DNA of 64,000 nucleotides from an uncultured Planctomycetia bacterium (GTDB lineage Bacteria; Omnitrophota; Gorgyraeia; 2-02-FULL-51-18), in assembly GCA_964373505.1 (NCBI GenBank), contig CAYJVC010000001.1, positions 41,630-105,629 of the forward strand, given 5' to 3'. Made by a program: the position numbers and the translations under genes. Positions within the stretch are counted from its first letter, which is position 1. Every line of letters begins with the position of its first letter. Below are positions 3,025-46,442 of this stretch, one piece after another. A model generated the notes under the pieces. That model saw only the letters and a program-made list of their open reading frames with translations, ran no database searches and was not told the DNA's origin.

Positions 3025-3140
3025 ATGACCCCACCCCCTCATTTTGAGGCGGACTGTTTTTGGGGTTTTTTGAGTCGTATTTGATTCGCCTCGACGCGCT
3101 TTGCGCCTCGGCGCGTAGCGCAAATGAGGGGGTGGGGTGA
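3025..3140 (+). repeat. Structured intergenic element copy E1: arms CCCCACCCCCTCATTT / AAATGAGGGGGTGGGG, right arm contains lysS GTG start
   Basis: 16-bp perfect inverted repeat (3029-3044 vs 3122-3137) flanking ~77 nt of GC hairpins. ATGACCCC at left, GGGGTGA at right. Confidence 0.8.
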
Positions 3141-7945: not shown

Positions 7946-8058
7946 CCCCATCCCCTCCTTTTTTATTTAGAGAATTGATGAATCCGCCCGCGGCGGGTTC
8001 ATGCGCCGTTTCCCGGATGATGAGTATTGAAGCGGCGCAAAAGGAGGGGATGGGGTGA
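7942..8058 (+). repeat. Structured intergenic element copy E2: arms CCCCATCCCCTCCTTTT / AAAAGGAGGGGATGGGG, bridges mcsA stop (ATGA) and mcsB GTG start (GTGA)
   Basis: 17-bp perfect inverted repeat (7946-7962 vs 8039-8055). Inner hairpins GCGCCG..CGGCGC, ATGAA..TTCAT. An element-spanning 38-codon ORF runs from ATG 7942 to TGA 8056. Confidence 0.8.
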
Positions 8059-18607: not shown

Positions 18608-20071
18608 ATGGCGCTGAAAATCTATAACTCGCTTACGAATCAGAAAGAAGAATTTAAGCCGCTGAATGCACCTGATGTGAAAATGTATGTTTGCGGCCCG
18701 ACGGTTTATGACGAGCCGCACATCGGGCATCTACGATCGGCACATGTATTCCAGGTCATAAGGAATTATCTGAAATACAAAAAGTACAATGTTACATTTG
18801 TGCGGAATGTTACAGACATAGATGACAAAATCATTGATAAAGCAAGGGAGCTCAAGAAAGCAGACCTAAATAATGCCGTTAAAGAGGTATCCGAAGTATA
18901 TTACAAAAAATATAAGGATGCGCTTTATGCGTTGATGGCTGACATAAAAGATCCACCCGACCAGGAGCCGAAAGCCACCGATCATATCCAAGACATGGTG
19001 CTATTGATCAAGGGCTTGATAGGAAAAGGCTATGCTTACGCTATCAATGGCGACGTATATTTTGAGGTCGATAAATTTGCCGAGTACGGAAAGCTTTCCC
19101 ACCAGAAGAAGGAAATGATGATGGATGGAGTGCGGATCGACCCCAATGAGAGAAAAAAAAGTCCGCTCGATTTCGCTTTATGGAAAGAGGCGAAGGAGGA
19201 AGAGCCATCTTGGCAGGGACCGGTAGAAGGTAAGTTCGGCAGACCTGGCTGGCATATCGAATGTTCGGCCATGAGCATGAAGCACCTCGGCGGCACATTG
19301 GATATTCACGGAGGCGGGCGCGATTTGATTTTTCCTCATCATGAAAATGAGATCGCTCAATCTGAGGCAAATACGGGGGGGATTTTTGCCAGGTATTGGC
19401 TGCATCACGGGCTTGTCACCATCAACGGACAGAAAATGTCAAAATCATTGAAGAACTATTTGACACTTAGTCAAATTAAAAATAATTATCCCTACGGCGA
19501 AGAATTGCTAAAACTACTTTTTCTTAATACTCACTACCGGGCCCCTTTGGATTTTTCTGACGATCGGATGGCAATGCAGGAGTCCATATTTCATAAATTG
19601 CGAGTTTTTTTTGACACGGTTCAGCAATTGAACATTCAGAAAATAGTGAACTTAGTGAAAAATAGCGAGTTGGAGAATATAGAAGCAAATTTTATGAACG
19701 CCATGGATGATGATTTTAATACCCCACTGGCTTTTTCAAAGCTGCAGGAGATGATGCATTATTCGTGGAAGAGTAATGATCCAACCGTCATGATGGCAGC
19801 GGCTGAGAAAATAAGCCGTCTTGGTAAACATGTATTCTCGCTTTTTACAGGGTGGGATATATCTGCCTTCTTTAACCCTGATCGAGGTGTTAGGGATAAT
19901 AAAGATCTTAAGCTTGACAGAGAAGTTCAACCCGAAATTGAAAGACGATATGAAGCGAGGAAAAAGAAGGATTTCAAACTGGCCGACGAAATTCGTGAAA
20001 ATTTGCGAGTTCGCTATCAGCTTGAACTCGTTGATTGGAAAGACGGTCGAACTACCTGGAGAAGTTTATGA
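18608..20071 (+). CDS. cysS: Cysteinyl-tRNA synthetase (class I)
   Basis: HIGH (HIGHLRSAHVFQV) and KMSKS motifs, Zn-binding Cys. The gene is markedly AT-rich relative to its neighbours. Confidence 0.95.
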   Translation: MALKIYNSLTNQKEEFKPLNAPDVKMYVCGPTVYDEPHIGHLRSAHVFQVIRNYLKYKKYNVTFVRNVTDIDDKIIDKARELKKADLNNAVKEVSEVYYKKYKDALYALMADIKDPPDQEPKATDHIQDMVLLIKGLIGKGYAYAINGDVYFEVDKFAEYGKLSHQKKEMMMDGVRIDPNERKKSPLDFALWKEAKEEEPSWQGPVEGKFGRPGWHIECSAMSMKHLGGTLDIHGGGRDLIFPHHENEIAQSEANTGGIFARYWLHHGLVTINGQKMSKSLKNYLTLSQIKNNYPYGEELLKLLFLNTHYRAPLDFSDDRMAMQESIFHKLRVFFDTVQQLNIQKIVNLVKNSELENIEANFMNAMDDDFNTPLAFSKLQEMMHYSWKSNDPTVMMAAAEKISRLGKHVFSLFTGWDISAFFNPDRGVRDNKDLKLDREVQPEIERRYEARKKKDFKLADEIRENLRVRYQLELVDWKDGRTTWRSL

Positions 20072-28197: not shown

Positions 28198-29335
28198 GCG
28201 CGTGAATTCCCCCCTTTGTACGGCGTGGGTCGAAGTCGACCTTGGCGCGCTACGGAATAATTTGAGACTTATCCGGAGGCGCATTCGGAAGGGCCGGACG
28301 CAAATACTCGCGGTGGTGAAAGCGGACGCCTATGGGCACGGAATGAAGTCCGTCGCAAAGGCGCTGGCCCGGGAGGGTGTGGGTTTTTTTGGTGTCGCCA
28401 ATATTGACGAGGCCATGGAGCTGCGGAGCGTCTGCCCCAGGCAAAAAATCCTCGTGCTCGGGAGCTTTCACGCGAGTCAACTGCTTTTTTTCATTCGCCA
28501 CCGCATCCTGCCGACTGTTTCTTCGGTCGGGGACATCCGGACCTTGGCGCGCACGTTAAGATCTCGAACGTCCCCGTTTCCGGTCCACGTGAAGATCGAC
28601 ACGGGCATGGGCCGGTTGGGGGTTTGGCACGAGGAGATCGAGCCTTTTTTTAAAATTTTAAAGCAGAATCCGAACGTGGGGGTCGAAGGTATTTACACGC
28701 ATTTTTCAAGCGCCGACAAAAAGGATAAAAGATTCACCCGGAAACAGCTCACGGACTTCGGCCGCGCGGTCCAAAAAATAAAGACGCTTGGCTTCCACCC
28801 CCGGTATATTCATGCAGCCAACAGCATGGGCCTCCTCCGCTTTACGAACGCGCATCTTAATCTTGTGAGGCCCGGGATCGTTTTGTATGGTGTTCAGCCC
28901 GATCGGCGCCTGGCGAAACTAGCGGGACTTAAACCCGTTATGTCGCTTAAAACACGGGTGTGCTTCCTTAAGGATGTGAAAAAGGGCTCGAGCATCAGTT
29001 ACGGCGCTTCGTATGTCACGCCCCGCGCGACGCGGATCGCGACGCTTCCCATCGGTTACAGCCATGGTTACCGTGTCGGATTTTCCAACAAGGCGTTTGT
29101 GCTGATCCGTGGCCGGAGGTATCCGGTGGTGGGGCGGGTGACGATGGACCAGACACTTGTGAACGTGGGCCCCGGGGCACGCGTCCGTCGTTGGGAGACG
29201 GTGACCCTTATCGGGCGTGATAACGGAGCGGTTATTTCAGCCGAAGATCTTGCGACGTTGGCGGGAAGCATCCCCTACGAAGTTGTTTGTTCCATCCACA
29301 GCCGCATCCCGCGGCTCTACAAGGGTGTTCGCTAG
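28187..29335 (+). CDS. alr: Alanine racemase
   Basis: PLP-Lys motif VVKADAYGHG, C-terminal beta domain. Confidence 0.9.
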   Translation: MAGKRVNSPLCTAWVEVDLGALRNNLRLIRRRIRKGRTQILAVVKADAYGHGMKSVAKALAREGVGFFGVANIDEAMELRSVCPRQKILVLGSFHASQLLFFIRHRILPTVSSVGDIRTLARTLRSRTSPFPVHVKIDTGMGRLGVWHEEIEPFFKILKQNPNVGVEGIYTHFSSADKKDKRFTRKQLTDFGRAVQKIKTLGFHPRYIHAANSMGLLRFTNAHLNLVRPGIVLYGVQPDRRLAKLAGLKPVMSLKTRVCFLKDVKKGSSISYGASYVTPRATRIATLPIGYSHGYRVGFSNKAFVLIRGRRYPVVGRVTMDQTLVNVGPGARVRRWETVTLIGRDNGAVISAEDLATLAGSIPYEVVCSIHSRIPRLYKGVR

Positions 29336-29405
29336 CCCCATCCCCTGTTTCCTGCGATCGCAAAGCGATCGGTCCACAGAGCGGAGGAAACAGGGGATGG
29401 GGTGG
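29333..29405 (+). repeat. Structured intergenic element copy E4: arms CCCCATCCCCTGTTTCC / GGAAACAGGGGATGGGG, followed by T-rich tract (terminator-like) after alr
   Basis: 17-bp perfect inverted repeat (29336-29352 vs 29384-29400). Inner TGCGATCGCA palindrome. Shares 12-mer AAGCGATCGGTC with E3. GTG in right arm not followed by a plausible gene. Confidence 0.8.
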
Positions 29406-29414
29406 TTCTTTTCT

Positions 29415-29443
29415 TTGGACAGCACTTTATTTCATGTTATAAT
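29415..29443 (+). promoter_or_regulatory. Near-consensus sigma70-type promoter TTGGAC-N17-TATAAT for the ilvB operon, in an AT-rich 130-nt leader
   Basis: ttggac(29415-29420), 17 nt, tataat(29438-29443). 11-bp palindrome ATTTACTAAAT at 29450-29460 near predicted TSS. T8 run at ~29492-29500. Confidence 0.5.
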
Positions 29444-29539
29444 AACAAGATTTACTAAATTCACCTGATATTAACCAGGCGAATAAGTGCTTTTTTTTGT
29501 CATTTAATCTTTTAACAGTAAAGGACTTAGGAAACTTCG

Positions 29540-31216
29540 ATGGCGAAAATGTCCGGCGCTCAGGCGGTTGTGGAAGCGTTCTCAAAAGAAGGGGTAGAGT
29601 ACGTGTTCGGCCTGCCCGGTGGCGCCTGTCTGCCTCTTTTTGATGCGCTGTACGACGCCAAGTTCAAGGTGATCCTTGTGCGCCATGAACAGGGCGCCGT
29701 GCATATGGCCGAAGGGTATGCGCGCTCAACGGGCCGGCCCGGCGTCGTGGTGGTGACTTCGGGCCCCGGCGCGACGAACACCGTGACCGGCATTGCCGAC
29801 GCTTACATGGATTCAATACCGCTGGTGGTGGTCACGGGCCAGGTGAAGACATTTTTGATCGGCAATGACGCGTTTCAGGAAGCGGATGTGACCGGCATTA
29901 CGCGCCCGGTCACGAAACATAATTACCTCGTAAAAGACGCCGCGGACCTGCCACGCGTGTTGAAAGAAGCGTTTTATATCGCCACGCACGGTCGTCCGGG
30001 GCCGGTGTTGATCGATTTTCCGTCGGATGTGAGCTTGACAGAGATCGATTTTGAGTACCCGTCGAGCGTGAATGTCCGTGGATTCAAGCCGGTGCTTTTG
30101 GGCCATCCCGGTCAGATCCGGAAGGCGTTCGATCTCATCATAAAGTCAAAACGCCCCGTGGTTTACACAGGGGGCGGCGTGATCGTCGCGAACGCTTCGA
30201 AGGAACTCATCGAGTTCGTGCAAAAGACGAATGCTCCTTGCACGAACACGCTCATGGGACTCGGCGGCGTGCCGGGGACGCACCCGCTTTTCATGGGGAT
30301 GCTCGGCATGCACGGCACCGTTTACGCGAATAAGGCCGTGAACGAATGCGATCTTTTGATCGCGGTGGGCGCGCGCTTTGACGACCGGGTGACGGGGGAC
30401 CTTACGAAGTTCGCTCCGAAGGCCAAGATCATCCACATCGACGTCGACCCCTCGGCGATCGCCAAGAACGTGAAGGTCGATGTGCCGATCGTAGGCGATG
30501 TGAAGCAGGTGCTTCAGGAACTCAACAAGATGGTGGGCCCGGTCGATACGAAGGAATGGCTTACGCAGATCGCCGCCTGGAGAAAGGAAAGCCCGCTTCG
30601 TTACGGCAATGACGGCGAGGACGTCCGCCCGCAGTATGCAATCCAGAGGCTTTGTGATATTTTGGGGACTGATGCGATCGTTTCGACGGATGTGGGCCAG
30701 CACCAGATGTGGGCCGCCCAGTATTACGTGTTGAGCGGACCGAACCAATTCCTGACGAGCGGGGGGCTAGGCACGATGGGCTACGGTTTTCCGGCGGCCA
30801 TCGGCGCGCAGTTCGCATTCCCGAAGAAGACGGTGCTCTGTATCACCGGCGACGGATCGTTCCAGATGAATATCCAGGAGATGGCCACCGCGGTGTACAA
30901 CAAGTTGCCCGTAAAGATCGCGATCATCAATAACAATTACCTGGGCATGGTGCGGCAGTGGCAGGAGATCTTTTACAAGCACCGTTATTCCAGTTCCGAG
31001 ATGAGCGGGAATCCTGATTTTGTGAAACTCGCCGAGGCTTATGGCGCCAAAGGCATTCGTGCGACAAAAATGAAAGAGGTGGACGACGCCATTCGATTCG
31101 CGCAGTCGGTGAAGGATGTGCCCTGCGTGATCGATTTTATTGTAAAGGAAGAGGAGAACGTTTACCCGATGATCCCGTCGGGCAAGTCACTCGATCAGCT
31201 GATGGATATGGCCTGA
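29540..31216 (+). CDS. ilvB: Acetolactate synthase large (catalytic) subunit, ThDP-dependent
   Basis: 558 aa. ThDP-binding GDGSFQMNIQEMATA..NN motif, FAD-binding middle domain. Confidence 0.95.
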   Translation: MAKMSGAQAVVEAFSKEGVEYVFGLPGGACLPLFDALYDAKFKVILVRHEQGAVHMAEGYARSTGRPGVVVVTSGPGATNTVTGIADAYMDSIPLVVVTGQVKTFLIGNDAFQEADVTGITRPVTKHNYLVKDAADLPRVLKEAFYIATHGRPGPVLIDFPSDVSLTEIDFEYPSSVNVRGFKPVLLGHPGQIRKAFDLIIKSKRPVVYTGGGVIVANASKELIEFVQKTNAPCTNTLMGLGGVPGTHPLFMGMLGMHGTVYANKAVNECDLLIAVGARFDDRVTGDLTKFAPKAKIIHIDVDPSAIAKNVKVDVPIVGDVKQVLQELNKMVGPVDTKEWLTQIAAWRKESPLRYGNDGEDVRPQYAIQRLCDILGTDAIVSTDVGQHQMWAAQYYVLSGPNQFLTSGGLGTMGYGFPAAIGAQFAFPKKTVLCITGDGSFQMNIQEMATAVYNKLPVKIAIINNNYLGMVRQWQEIFYKHRYSSSEMSGNPDFVKLAEAYGAKGIRATKMKEVDDAIRFAQSVKDVPCVIDFIVKEEENVYPMIPSGKSLDQLMDMA

Positions 31217-31354
31217 TGAATAAATCCGAAGCACGAAATCCGAAATCCGAAACACAAAATTCAAAACAAAGGTTTCGGTCATTCGAATTTAGGGTTTCGA
31301 ATTTGTTTCGTGCTTCGTGCTTCGAATTTAGGATTTAGCACGAAAGGAGGATTT
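31217..31354 (+). repeat. AT-rich repeat-laden spacer between ilvB and ilvN: tandem CGAAATC x3, TTCGAATTT x3, TTCGAATTTAGG x2, forming a ~35-nt imperfect inverted repeat
   Basis: Left half AATCCGAAGCACGAAATCCGAAATCCGAAACAC is near-reverse-complement of right half GGTTTCGAATTTGTTTCGTGCTTCGTGCTTCGAATT. GC ~35% vs ~58% flanks. Confidence 0.6.
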
Positions 31355-31867
31355 TTGGCGATACATGACGTTACCCCCATTACTGAGCATATATTATCGG
31401 TGCTTGTGGAGAACCGGGCCGGGGTGCTGTCTCATGTTGTCGGGCTTTTCTCGGCGCGCGGATTCAACATCGATTCACTCGCGGTTGGTGAAACCGAAGA
31501 CCCGACGATGTCACGCATTACGCTCGTGACGCAGTGCGATCTGAAGACCTTTGAGCAGGTCAAGAAGCAGCTCAACAAGCTGATCGACACGATCAAGGTG
31601 CAGGACCTCACCGAGGAGGGCTATGTGGACCGTGAGCTCATGATGGTCAAGCTCGCGAACTCTGAAGAGACCCGGCGCGCGCTCGAGGGCCCCTTGAAAC
31701 AGTACCGTGTGCAGGTGGTCGCACAGAACGAGAAGCTTGTGATCTTGGAGAGCACGGAGTCGCGGGAAAACTCCAAGAAGATATTCGAGATTTTCAGGAA
31801 ATTGGGGGTTAAGGAAGTGGCGCAGACCGGGGTGGTCGCGCTTTCAAAAAAGACCCCGAAGGAATAA
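31355..31867 (+). CDS. ilvN: Acetolactate synthase small (regulatory, ACT-domain) subunit. Probable TTG start 8 nt after GGAGG
   Basis: [37 protein letters not shown] motif. ORF-caller start 31310 lies inside the repeat spacer. SD aaaggagg at 31343-31350. Confidence 0.8.
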
Positions 31868-31881
31868 GGGAAAGGCTGGAT

Positions 31882-32868
31882 ATGGTAAAGATCTATTACG
31901 ACAATGATGCGGACTTGTCATTGATCCGGAGTAAGGCAGTAGGGATGATCGGGTACGGCATTCAGGGGCGCGGTCAGGCGCTCAACTTAAGGGACAGCGG
32001 TGTCCGGGTGATCGTGTCCCAAAGACCCGGCGGGCCGAACCACGCGCAAGCCGTGAAGGATGGTTTCGACCCCGTGGAGGCCTCGGAGCTTGCCGGAAAG
32101 TCCGACGTGATCATCGTCCTGGCGCAGGATCCGCTGCAGGCCGAGATCTACAAAAAATCGGTCGCGCCGCATCTGACAAAAGGCAAGGCACTGGCGTTTT
32201 CGCACGGATTCAATATCCATTTCAAGCAGATCGTCCCGCCGAAGTTCGTGGACGTTTTCATGGTGGCCCCGAAGGGGCCGGGCAGCCTTGTGCGGCGCCT
32301 TTACGAAGAGGGTAAAGGCGTTCCGTGCCTCGTGGCCATCTACCAGGACGCTACGAAAACATGTAAGGAGCTCGCGCTTTCCTACGCGAAGGCGCTCGGC
32401 GGCACGCGCGCCGGCGTGATCGAAACCACGTTTAAAGAGGAGACCGAAACGGATCTTTTTGGCGAGCAGTCGGTGTTGTGCGGCGGCACGAGCGCTCTCA
32501 TCAAGGCGGGTTTTGAGACGCTCGTGAAGGCCGGTTACCAGCCGGAGGTCGCGTATTTCGAATGTTTGCACGAGCTGAAACTTATCACGGACATGATATA
32601 CGCCACGGGCATTCAGGGCATGAGAAAACGAGTGTCGGACACGGCCGAGTACGGCGACTTGACGCGCGGCCCGCGCATCGTGAACCAGAAAACGCGCGCC
32701 CAAATGCAGAAGATCCTCAAGGACATCCAATCGGGGAAATTCGCGAAGGAGTTTTTGGCGGACTATCACAAGGGCAAAAAGAATTTTGAGAAATTGCGCC
32801 ATGCGGATGACGACCATCCCATTGAAAAAGTAGGAGCGAAGCTCCGCGGAATGATGCGCTGGTTATAA
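31882..32868 (+). CDS. ilvC: Ketol-acid reductoisomerase (class I, short form)
   Basis: Rossmann [17 protein letters not shown], catalytic C-terminal knotted domain, 328 aa. Confidence 0.95.
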
Positions 32869-32874
32869 GATCAT

Positions 32875-32983
32875 TGTGACGTTCACGGGTGACGCGAGGC
32901 GGGGCGCCCCATTCGCGCGCAGCGAACCTCAGTTACGCGAGCAAGAATGGGGCTGCCGAGCGGCAGGACCCGTGAACGTCACA
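32875..32983 (+). repeat. Nested palindromic intergenic element (family 2) between ilvC and leuA: outer 16-bp perfect arms TGTGACGTTCACGGGT / ACCCGTGAACGTCACA enclosing three GC hairpins
   Basis: Arms 32875-32890 vs 32968-32983. Inner GGGGCGCCCC (32901-32910), GCCCCATTC..GAATGGGGC (32906-32914/32945-32953), CTGCCGagCGGCAG (32953-32966). Confidence 0.75.
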
Positions 32984-32996
32984 TAGAGAGTGTTTT

Positions 32997-34553
32997 ATGG
33001 ATGATAAAAACAAAATCTACATATTTGACACGACGCTTCGCGACGGCGAACAATCGCCGGGTGCCAGCCTCGACCAAAAAGGAAAGCTCGAGATCGCCCG
33101 GCAGCTGGCCCAGCTACGCGTAGACGTGATCGAGGCGGGTTTCCCCGTGACCTCTCCCGGGGATGCCGCAGCCGTGAGATCCATCGCAAAAGAAGTGAAA
33201 GGCCCCGTTATTTGTGCGCTGGCGCGCACGGTCCAAAAAGACATTGACATTGCCCTCGAGTCTTTAAAGCCCGCGAATCGGAGCCGTCTCCACGTTTTCA
33301 TCGCGACCTCTGAGATCCACCGCAAATACAAATTAAACAAGGCCAAGGAAGAGATCGTCCGGATCGCGACCGCGTCCGTGAGGTACGCGAGGGAACGTAT
33401 CGGCGAGGTTGAGTTCTCTCCGGAGGATGCTTCTCGCACCGAACCGCCTTTTTTGTACGAGGTGCTCGAGGCCGTGATCCAAGCCGGCGCACGGGTGCTG
33501 AACATCCCGGACACCGTCGGCTATGCAACCCCGTTCGAGTTCGGGAACCTGATTAAAGGCATTTTTGAGAATGTTCCCAGTATCGGCAAGACGATCGTGA
33601 GCGTCCACTGTCACAACGACCTGGGTCTGGCGGTCGCCAATTCACTCGCGGCCGTGAAGTTCGGCGCGCGCCAAGTCGAGTGCACCGTGAACGGCATCGG
33701 CGAGCGCGCCGGGAACGCGGCCATGGAAGAGGTCGTGATGGCTCTCGACACGCGCCGGGACATCTTTGGCGACAAGGTCACCCAAGTCCGAAAAGACCAG
33801 ATCTGCAAGACGAGCCGTCTGGTGAGCTCGCTCACCGGCATGATGGTCCAGGCGAACAAGGCCGTCGTGGGGCGCAACGCATTCACGCATGAGTCGGGCA
33901 TCCATCAGGACGGCCTTTTGAAGCTGAGAAAGACCTATGAGATCATGCGGCCCGAGGAAGTGGGATTCGGTGAGACACAGCTCGTGCTCGGCAAGCACTC
34001 GGGGCGGCATGCGCTCGAAAATCGTCTGGCGAAGCTCGGTTACAAATTGAACCCGAAAGAGCTCGAGACGGTGTTCGAAAATTTCAAACACTTGGCCGAC
34101 AAGAAAAAAGAGGTATTTGACGACGACCTGGCCGCGCTTGTGGACAAAGAGATCGTGTCCACGCCAAAAACCTATGAGCTCGTGTATCTCAGCGCACTGA
34201 CCGAATCGGAAAAAGCCCCGAAGGTCTCACTTAAGATCAAGCACAAGGACCGTGTGCTGTCCGCGGCCGGCACCGGCTCGGGCCCCGTGGACGCCGCCTA
34301 CAAAACGATCGACAAGATCTTGAAGTCCAAGAGCACGCTTTTGGATTATAAGATCCGCTCCGTGACCGTCGGCAAGGACGCGCAAGGCGAGGTGACCGTG
34401 AAAGTTGAAGGTTCCCGCGGCGAGGTGGCGATCGGGCAGGGTTTGAGCACCGACGTCATAGAGGCTTCCGTCAAGGCGTATTTGGCGGCACTCAATAAAC
34501 TTCATCAAAGGTCGGCGCCGCCAGGCAAAGAAAAAACGGCGCATGGCGTTTAG
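32997..34553 (+). CDS. leuA: 2-isopropylmalate synthase (long form with C-terminal LeuA regulatory domain)
   Basis: [29 protein letters not shown] (TIM-barrel metal site), ~150-aa C-terminal regulatory domain. Citramalate synthase not excluded. Confidence 0.8.
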
Positions 34554-42081: not shown

Positions 42082-42133
42082 CGGCATTCGCGGGTCCTGC
42101 CGCTGCGGCAGGTCGCCGTCACCCGCGAATGCC
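42078..42133 (+). repeat. Nested palindromic intergenic element (family 2) between xerC and waaA: outer arms GGCATTCGCGGGT / ACCCGCGAATGCC, inner hairpin CCTGCCGCtGCGGCAGG, alternative pairing GTGACGGC/GCCGTCAC
   Basis: Perfect 13-bp outer arms (42083-42095 vs 42121-42133). Perfect 8-bp inner stem (42096-42112). Left arm shares TTCRCGGGT core with the ilvC-leuA element. Confidence 0.75.
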
Positions 42134-42147
42134 ACCGGGCCATCCGT

Positions 42148-46359: not shown

Positions 46360-46442
46360 CCCCATCCTCTCCTTTGAAATTTTCAATTTTAGCGCGGTGC
46401 GCTGAGGCGACTTTGTCGCCTCGAAAGGAGGGGATGGGGTGA
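46356..46442 (+). repeat. Structured intergenic element copy E5: arms CCCCATCCTCTCCTTTG / CGAAAGGAGGGGATGGGG (one U-G wobble), bridges acyltransferase stop (ATGA) and GT4-GT9 GTG start (GTGA)
   Basis: Arms 46360-46376 vs 46422-46439. Inner perfect hairpins AGCGCggtGCGCT and GAGGCGACtttGTCGCCTC. An element-spanning 28-codon ORF runs from ATG 46356 to TGA 46440. Confidence 0.8.

Follow-up and report, generated by a model that had tools for sequence, protein, structure and literature searches.

A heptanucleotide-repeat palindrome between ilvB and ilvN of an uncultured Omnitrophota bacterium shares ordered repeat units with uncultured phages

The genes for the large and small subunits of acetolactate synthase, ilvB and ilvN, are separated by a repeat-filled spacer in a 64,000-nt stretch of DNA from an uncultured bacterium of the phylum Omnitrophota (GenBank assembly GCA_964373505.1, contig CAYJVC010000001.1, positions 41,630 to 105,629); the whole stretch is called the window below, and positions are given in its numbering. 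The reading that we favor, and consider somewhat the better bet, is that this spacer is the local copy of a labile, horizontally shared intergenic heptanucleotide repeat of (CGAANNN)n type, belonging to an AAATCCG/AAGCACG subfamily, that originated by slippage and exerts at most a modest post-transcriptional effect. The spacer is not a dedicated regulator of the ilv genes and is unlikely to be an ilv-specific sensor. It is assigned to a dispersed family because its units recur, in order, at gene junctions that are unrelated, both in a second Omnitrophota genome and in phage contigs. A preliminary description, made from the sequence alone, had offered a small inserted repeat as one of three explanations, and the occurrence of the same ordered units at non-homologous loci of other genomes and phages bears that suggestion out.

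The gap between the ilvB stop and the ilvN TTG start spans 138 nt (31217-31354). Its extent, the Shine-Dalgarno (SD) sequence AAAGGAGG and the TTG start had all been recognized beforehand and are upheld by the gene calls and by comparison with relatives; the start agrees with the MA(V/I)HD N-termini of aligned homologs and with an independent 170-aa gene call on a Logan contig. The spacer is AT-rich as described, with a measured GC content of 0.377 rather than about 35%, compared with approximately 0.55 for the window; since the AT content of other intergenic regions of the window is just as high, low GC by itself is nothing out of the ordinary. Autocorrelation of the spacer at lag 7 is 0.51, against 0.258 +/- 0.041 in dinucleotide-preserving shuffles, none of 2000 of which reached the observed value, and harmonics are seen at lags 14 and 21. 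Tandem Repeats Finder (TRF) returned a period of 7 for the spacer, with 4.4 copies of AAATCCG and 2.6 copies of TTCGTGC, and over the whole 64 kb found no second heptamer array with at least three copies. Of the individual repeats listed in the preliminary description, TTCGAATTTAGG (twice), TTCGTGC (twice) and TTCGAA(TTT) (three times) are all present, but CGAAATC, said to occur three times in tandem, has two perfect copies, the third being a degenerate CGAAACA.

These heptads are arranged in two arms (Table 1). The A-rich arm lies on the mRNA strand directly 3' of the ilvB stop, has no stop codon in any of the six frames and is the portion common to other genomes. The T-rich arm, within which a small inner hairpin is found around 31281-31304, completes a quasi-palindrome of approximately 117 nt that ends just 5' of the ilvN SD. 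The near-complementarity that had been noticed between the left and right thirds of the spacer amounts to 84% over 25 nt (31221-31245 against 31306-31330) and 71% over 34 nt. An extra A-type unit, AGCACGAAA, follows the T-rich arm; it is a direct repeat of 31230-31238, is complementary at nine of nine positions to 31306-31314, and looks, from its sequence, like what is left of a single array that originally extended into the SD, as one does at the Omnitrophota locus L010 (AAGCACGAAATCCGAAAGGA). Two Logan contigs that encode identical IlvN and IlvC proteins, L001 (run ERR4904391) and L002 (run ERR4904390), both end in mid-spacer, no more than 5 nt apart; positions 1-60 of each correspond to window positions of about 31296-31355, L002 being without one C at its tip. 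These ends suggest either an assembly break at the hairpin or repeat, or population heterogeneity. An exact-protein look-up found IlvN and IlvC on these two contigs only, and IlvB was not on record.

The evidence for a dispersed family comes from the order of the units. AAATCCG-AAGCACG-AAATCCG-AAAC occurs at nine loci of uncultured phages, which represent eight distinct elements, and in the ilvB-ilvN gap of L010, where a single array reads AAATTCG AAATTCG AAGCACG AAATCCG AAAGGA. Alignment (A1) of the copies gives a conserved order of (AAATCCG)1-2 - AAGCACG - AAATCCG - AAAC/G AAAT..., the core of which is found in L010 and in L163-L168. Window positions 31222-31254 are identical over all 33 nt to phage contig L167, while the 18-mer GAAGCACGAAATCCGAAA, common to the window and L010, matched six IMG/VR loci and its degenerate version eight, every match falling inside an element of this kind. 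Also recurrent is the motif of the inner stem, CGAATGAC...GGTCATTCG, whose GGTCATTCG... part is common to L165, L166, and L170; a 19-mer from the inner stem mostly matched unrelated coding sequence and added one family member, L243.

The contigs that carry the element are those of real phages, with genes for portal, prohead protease, capsid, and amidase and a GC content ranging from about 26% to 70%. In them the element is located between the portal and prohead-protease genes, beside capsid-type genes or 3' of a lysis-cassette gene, with one such element per locus (loci of 10-64 kb). Single-arm copies, which include those of L167 and L010 and most matches to (AAATCCG)3, are bounded by a stop codon on one side and the following SD or start on the other, the array often beginning with the triplet of that stop codon. 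Strand was called from the presence of an SD plus start and from the stop-codon end, assignment by open reading frame (ORF) alone being too noisy in GC-rich phage DNA; on this criterion there are, family-wide, 27 indications that the A-rich strand is the sense strand against five for antisense. Some arrays lie inside ORFs or at their ends, as in L164, where the portal ORF ends in ...NPKSEIRNPKEIQNP.... No real match to the element was obtained among the cultured phages of GenBank or the plasmids of PLSDB, and a full-text literature search for its sequence strings found no paper. The flanks of L163, L164, L165, L166, L170, and L185 have no consistent direct repeat or common end, and no signature of transposition was seen among the copies of the element.

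The element belongs to a broader background of heptad arrays. (AAATCCG)3 is found at 25 IMG/VR loci and (AAGACAG)3 at 11; (ACATCGA)3, equivalent to CGAACAT and so of CGAA-NNN type and no control, is found at 30, whereas a composition-matched, stop-free control without CGAA, (ACAACGT)3, is found at three. All of these counts are far above the approximately 0.05 loci per 21-mer expected by chance, a back-of-envelope figure for an assumed collection of about 10^11 bases. The density of heptad-periodic segments per kb rises from 0.01 in Firmicutes control loci through 0.03 in this window, where the segments are the two spacer arms, and 0.09 in Omnitrophota loci to 0.42-0.59 in the phage sets, in which such segments cover 2.6-3.6% of bases; the same comparison gave no increase at lags 6, 8, and 10. 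The 7.7-kb phage contig L170 (IMGVR_UViG_3300045006_000285) has 18 such segments comprising a dozen different units and 15% of its bases, mostly just 5' of SD-start sites, and L189 has 21 arrays in 14 kb, among them units of the type present in the relative L007 (see below). Arrays are identical between near-identical contigs of different samples and hence not hypervariable over such a time span, an observation that speaks against rapid phase variation. None of the six reading frames of the units contains a stop codon, and (AAATCCG)n is translated as KSEIRNP in whichever frame it is read. Heptad arrays were also observed to be very frequent at the gene junctions of the uncultured phage contigs L170, L189, L214, L224, and L184, with units that include AGAGGTT, AGGGTTC, AGAGTTC, CAAAATC, CAGTGAC, and CGAATGT, several of them having SD-like GAGG cores.

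Comparison with relatives places the spacer in a lineage whose ilv-leu junctions are in flux. IlvN matches are to Candidatus Omnitrophota, the best being the metagenome-assembled genome RIFCSPHIGHO2_02_FULL_51_18 (L003) at 87% identity, with the rest of the clade at 63-70%; scans of genomes and metagenomes with the IlvN query yielded no relative above 87%. Across the clade the ilvB-ilvN gap varies from 0 to 229 nt. The expectation that the two genes are normally tightly packed holds for about half of the relatives, more than ten of which have gaps of 0-15 nt (for example L006, L008, L009, L012, and L013; one such junction reads TAAAGGAGATTTatg), but junctions filled with repeats are recurrent in the clade. 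The gap of L003 is 49 nt with (AAAAATG)n, that of L007 has GAGACAG/GATTCAG units, that of L011 (AAGACAG)3, that of L004 a palindrome of about 135 nt built from GTTCGGA/CTCCGAA units, and that of L084 a 229-nt heptad hairpin. Similar turnover of arrays is seen in the ilvN-ilvC and ilvC-leuA gaps of relatives: in L004, GAAGCAT/GAGACAT units form a hairpin of 247 nt between ilvC and leuA (-114 kcal/mol), in L093 two junctions have octamer hairpins that belong to one unit family, and in L007 two junctions have AAAATGN arrays. Within 0.51 Mb of DNA from the clade, period-7/8 arrays were counted at about 17 sites in the three ilv-leu junctions and at about eight elsewhere, so that roughly two-thirds lie in these junctions, a crude count given that the loci were centred on ilvN. 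The view that a structured spacer at this position is unusual must consequently be given up, an array-filled junction being typical of the lineage; nor is the spacer an unstructured linker shared by relatives, whose junctions are tight or contain different arrays. As far as these sequences allow it to be judged, the spacer is of a kind typical for its lineage but its sequence is unique, and its turnover outpaces the divergence of the proteins on either side.

Some of the inverted-array hairpins in relatives are built of 8-nt rather than 7-nt units (L093 719-764 and 1777-1892; L015 4382-4482 and 9166-9261), and a single contig can have the same octamer family (TTGAATCG; AACCTTTT/TAAAAGGT) at two or three sites. 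A 32-nt unit (CATGCAGTCAGGAAAAGACTTGACCCCTTCGG) is present in two tandem copies in the flank of another relative, L007 7418-7482.

Folding of the spacer provides a means of asking on which strand its structure might matter, the premise being that selection on an mRNA hairpin should build up G-U pairs on the sense strand. The long imperfect stem proposed in the preliminary description does fold, with 36-41 pairs, but it is not rich in G-U pairs on the transcript. The minimum-free-energy fold of the mRNA sense strand contains a single G-U pair (-36 to -43 kcal/mol; z of -2.4 for a 156-nt stretch and -4.1 for the 117-nt element), whereas the antisense strand contains four and is the more stable (-44 to -46 kcal/mol; z of -4.7). 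Nine of nine family hairpins tested fold strongly (z of -2.9 to -9.5), with 27 G-U pairs in the sense orientation against 35 in the antisense; for 22 ilv-junction hairpins the corresponding figures are 60 and 76, with the sense strand folding more stably than the antisense in 13 cases and less stably in nine. This lack of a sense G-U excess fits palindromes formed at the DNA level by inverted duplication, although the test has limited power, given how young and close to perfect the stems are. The stem had also been thought to end right at the SD. The palindrome indeed stops just 5' of it, but the SD lies outside the main stem and has an alternative hairpin beside it: in the sense ensemble of a 271-nt context, local folds compete with the long stem, including one in which TTTCGTGCT pairs with AGCACGAAA next to the SD. 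In this ensemble 31343-31345 pair with 31306-31308, and the core of the SD is about half unpaired.

Taken as a repeat of this dispersed type, the spacer can be given a plausible history. Arrays would arise by slipped-strand expansion of 7-nt units in gaps between stop and start codons, a bias of heptamers toward slippage having been proposed earlier (Rehm et al., 2015, PMC4692102), would pass between phages and hosts by recombination, and would sometimes be duplicated in inverted orientation. They may persist because they are benign, being stop-free in every frame and yielding a hydrophilic peptide if read. In the ilv operon the element is presumed to be co-transcribed with ilvBNC, and the hairpin may loop the insert out, keeping the ilvB stop close to the ilvN SD and start. 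Any effect on the mRNA would be modest, whether as a site of double-stranded processing or stability or through looser translational coupling of ilvB and ilvN; the long double-stranded segment could be a substrate for an RNase III-type enzyme or a barrier to exonucleases, in which case its effect on ilvBN would be a generic one. By way of analogy only, the ilv-leu transcript of Bacillus subtilis is differentially processed.

Of the searches proposed in the preliminary description, that for additional copies recovered the same units in L010 and in phage contigs but none elsewhere in the window by pattern search, blastn-short or nhmmer, a copy count that covers these 64 kb only. Several observations weigh against this history. 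The concentration of arrays at ilv-leu junctions is not explained by a passive model, and the exact order of units over 20-33 nt across genomes that range from 33 to 70% GC, the sense bias, and the density of arrays in compact phages could be the mark of selection for function.

The latter features form the case for the alternative that we take most seriously, although we judge it unlikely, namely that the repeat is a functional post-transcriptional element in which the A-rich array acts as an mRNA platform for S1, for a Csp- or CsrA-like protein or for 30S standby, and so promotes or tunes initiation at the gene downstream; in the window, the inverted arm would then mask the A-rich array or turn it into a structured switch. 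Besides the conserved unit order in very different genomes and the abundance of arrays in compact phage genomes, such a role would account for single sense arrays immediately 5' of start codons, several without an intervening SD, and it has parallels in proposals made for TAACTGA repeats (PMC4679880) and Nostoc heptamers (bioRxiv 10.1101/2022.06.06.494920). A single sequence-specific binder is, however, a poor fit to the dozen unrelated units in one phage contig (L170); some relatives manage without any spacer, the array in the window is paired with its complement and accompanied by a strong SD anyway, and the hairpins lack a strand-specific wobble signal. A more far-reaching form of the idea would make (CGAANNN)n arrays a functional, horizontally exchanged "junction code" of Omnitrophota (or related PVC-superphylum bacteria) and their phages, consisting of sense RNA elements that set re-initiation, translation or processing, with the ilvB-ilvN hairpin as a working structured version and shared units marking the phages that infect the phylum; we hold this to be a speculative and improbable extension.

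The remaining explanations fare less well. Insertion by a trans-acting transposase, as a miniature inverted-repeat transposable element (MITE) of ERIC- or REPIN-like kind, would suit an imperfect palindrome of approximately 117 nt in a transcribed intergenic site with terminal inverted repeats that are 84% complementary over 25 nt, the presence of homologous copies at non-homologous loci in several genomes, and the 9-nt direct repeats of AGCACGAAA that flank about 98 nt of the window copy. Yet this apparent duplication is itself a repeat unit, the other copies have neither consistent termini nor target-site duplications, only a single element is present per 10-64-kb locus, single-arm forms are common, and the number of units per arm differs between copies in the manner predicted by slippage, so that we rate a MITE as quite improbable. 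A dedicated ilv regulatory RNA (an attenuator, riboswitch or T-box-like structure), or an internal terminator or promoter controlling ilvN apart from ilvB, is largely refuted and very improbable. The regulatory structure envisaged in the preliminary description has in its favor a stable possible fold and the alternative TTTCGTGCT/AGCACGAAA pairing adjoining the SD, but no Rfam family reaches its gathering score in the window and relaxing the threshold to E<=10 brings up nothing but chance matches to eukaryotic miRNA and snoRNA models; the structure is unconserved in relatives, being absent from the closest of them (L003), and shows no enrichment of G-U pairs on the mRNA strand. In a consensus scan of 29200-33200 (GC-rich stem plus T-run; -35/-10 hexamers), no terminator- or promoter-like site was found inside 31217-31354, and the same sequence occurs between phage portal and protease genes and beside capsid-type genes. 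Least probable of all, and in our estimation scarcely credible, is an array of DNA sites for a transcription factor or nucleoid protein with TTCGAA as palindromic half-site. Three TTCGAA sites in 138 nt, against 23 in 64 kb, speak for it, but they simply follow from the 7-nt units: family members mostly have TTCGGA, or else TTCGTG or TTCAAA, the 7-bp spacing would put successive sites on different faces of the helix, and the location is within the operon, 1.8 kb downstream of the promoter-like site.

Heptamer repeats in intergenic DNA have been on record for decades from cyanobacteria, Beggiatoaceae, and Xanthomonas. The closest counterparts of the repeat described here are the TAACTGA repeats of marine Beggiatoaceae, cyanobacteria, and some Bacteroidetes, for which translation-related binding has been proposed (MacGregor, 2015, PMC4679880). 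In both cases 7-nt units occur in sets of 2-6 or more that are often "split" by related 7-mers; the sets are mostly intergenic, in forward orientation and just 5' of start codons, with some overlapping the ends of ORFs or lying inside them; and the distribution is patchy across phyla, suggesting horizontal spread without an evident mechanism (PMC4679880). Unlike TAACTGA, which carries stops, the units here are stop-free CGAANNN types, the lineages are Omnitrophota and uncultured phages, and a strong SD is present. Inverted-array hairpins are frequent, compared with a single inverted case in the BOGUAY genome, and there is one set in this 64-kb window as opposed to 169 TAACTGA sets per Beggiatoa genome (PMC4679880). 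The cyanobacterial STRR/Nostoc heptamers and the Xanthomonas GGGAATC repeats are likewise heptameric, over-represented in intergenic regions and near start codons (PMC4692102; bioRxiv 10.1101/2022.06.06.494920), vary in length and sequence between close relatives at the same gene pair, and occasionally include inverted pairs that form stem-loops; Nostoc (TTCAAAA)3 resembles the inner units of the spacer (Pradhan et al., 2022, bioRxiv 10.1101/2022.06.06.494920). The Xanthomonas and Nostoc repeats are G-rich and capable of forming G-quadruplexes, whereas the units here are A/C-rich, and no phage connection has been described for the STRR, Nostoc or Xanthomonas repeats.

ERIC/IRU and Correia-type elements are imperfect palindromes, about 100-150 bp long, that are inserted between transcribed genes, also inside operons, fold in the mRNA and can alter the processing or stability of flanking cistrons; they have a fixed sequence, defined ends, TA duplications, and tens to hundreds of copies per genome. 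In the present element, by comparison, each arm is an array of heptads whose number varies, a search of the flanks found no duplications, and copies are sparse; should the window copy have an effect at all, it would by analogy act as these palindromes do. Its heptad architecture and the sparseness of its copies also set the element apart from REP/REPIN sequences, no search aimed at RAYT having been made. In cluster K mycobacteriophages (Pope et al., 2011), a short conserved motif (SAS/ESAS) reportedly occurs at many gene starts with inverted repeats upstream and is presumed to be translational; SAS is a single 13-bp motif that includes the SD, rather than heptads in tandem, and is not known to occur in host operons as well. 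The present case is new in its unit family and its phylum, in being shared with phage genomes, in how often the hairpin form occurs, and in the clustering of arrays at ilv-leu junctions.

Table 1. Features of the ilv-leu region and of the ilvB-ilvN spacer, in window coordinates.
Feature	Position	Strand	Basis or remark
alr, ilvB, ilvN, ilvC, leuA	in window	all +	
Promoter-like site TGGACA-16 nt-TATAAT, TG before -10, upstream of ilvB	29416-29443	+	11/12 consensus matches
ilvB, acetolactate synthase large subunit	29540-31216	+	TIGR00118, 846.9 bits, cut-off 538
Tandem stop TGATGA ending ilvB	31214-31219	+	
A-rich arm, seven 7-nt units: AAATCCG AAGCACG AAATCCG AAATCCG AAACACA AAATTCA AAACAAA	31222-31270	+	TRF, heptad register
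T-rich arm, degenerate inverted copy of A-rich arm: GGTTTCG GTCATTC GAATTTA GGGTTTC GAATTTG TTTCGTG CTTCGTG CTTCGAA TTTAGGA TTT	31271-31336	+	
Extra A-type unit AGCACGAAA, running into SD	31337-31345	+	
ilvN Shine-Dalgarno AAAGGAGG, 4 nt 5' of TTG start, outside main stem	31343-31350	+	31345-31350 mean unpaired probability 0.49
ilvN, acetolactate synthase small subunit, TTG start	31355-31867	+	NF008864, 186 bits, cut-off 119
ilvC	31882-32868	+	
ilvC-leuA spacer: GC-rich long hairpin, of another kind than the ilvB-ilvN element, no heptads	32869-32996	+	
leuA	32997-34553	+	

The promoter-like site upstream of ilvB (Table 1) is likely to be the start of an ilvB-ilvN-ilvC transcript that carries the spacer. 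The leader between this site and the ilvB start (29444-29539, about 95 nt) is AT-rich, contains GTGCTTTTTTTTG and is a possible candidate for an attenuator or other leader. As the GC-rich hairpin between ilvC and leuA demonstrates, the junctions of this operon harbor hairpins of several kinds. Its ends, ACGGGTGACGC ... GGCAGGACCCGT, are shared with a shorter hairpin at 42091-42135 (reverse) and with the ilvN-ilvC spacer of L004, and may, on sequence grounds, define another dispersed hairpin family that occupies a different ilv junction in another genome; the 11-mer count for these ends is not above chance (two matches against 1.9 expected). Elsewhere in the window, a second hairpin family unrelated to heptads has stems that begin with (A)CCCCATCCCCT and end with AGGGGATGGGG(T), at 3029-3137, 7946-8055, 29336-29402, and 46360-46439, one copy lying between alr and the ilvB promoter-like site. 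Ten arm matches were counted against 1.5 expected, a number reached in none of 100 shuffles, and these CCCCATCCCCT hairpins look like a REP-like or terminator family of this genome. A 487-aa ORF at 18608-20071 lies in a stretch of low GC (0.28-0.36 locally; 0.465 for 18-20 kb against about 0.55 elsewhere) and may have been acquired horizontally.

For the ilv operon itself the spacer has little import, being a dispensable and fast-evolving insert. Its significance lies rather in the wider pattern to which it points, of ordered repeat units common to an Omnitrophota chromosome and to phages with arrays at very many of their gene junctions. With these arrays, slippage, spread by recombination and a possible translational role could be tested in a compact system, and the units shared between chromosome and phage may provide a host-linkage signal for the phages of an uncultured phylum.

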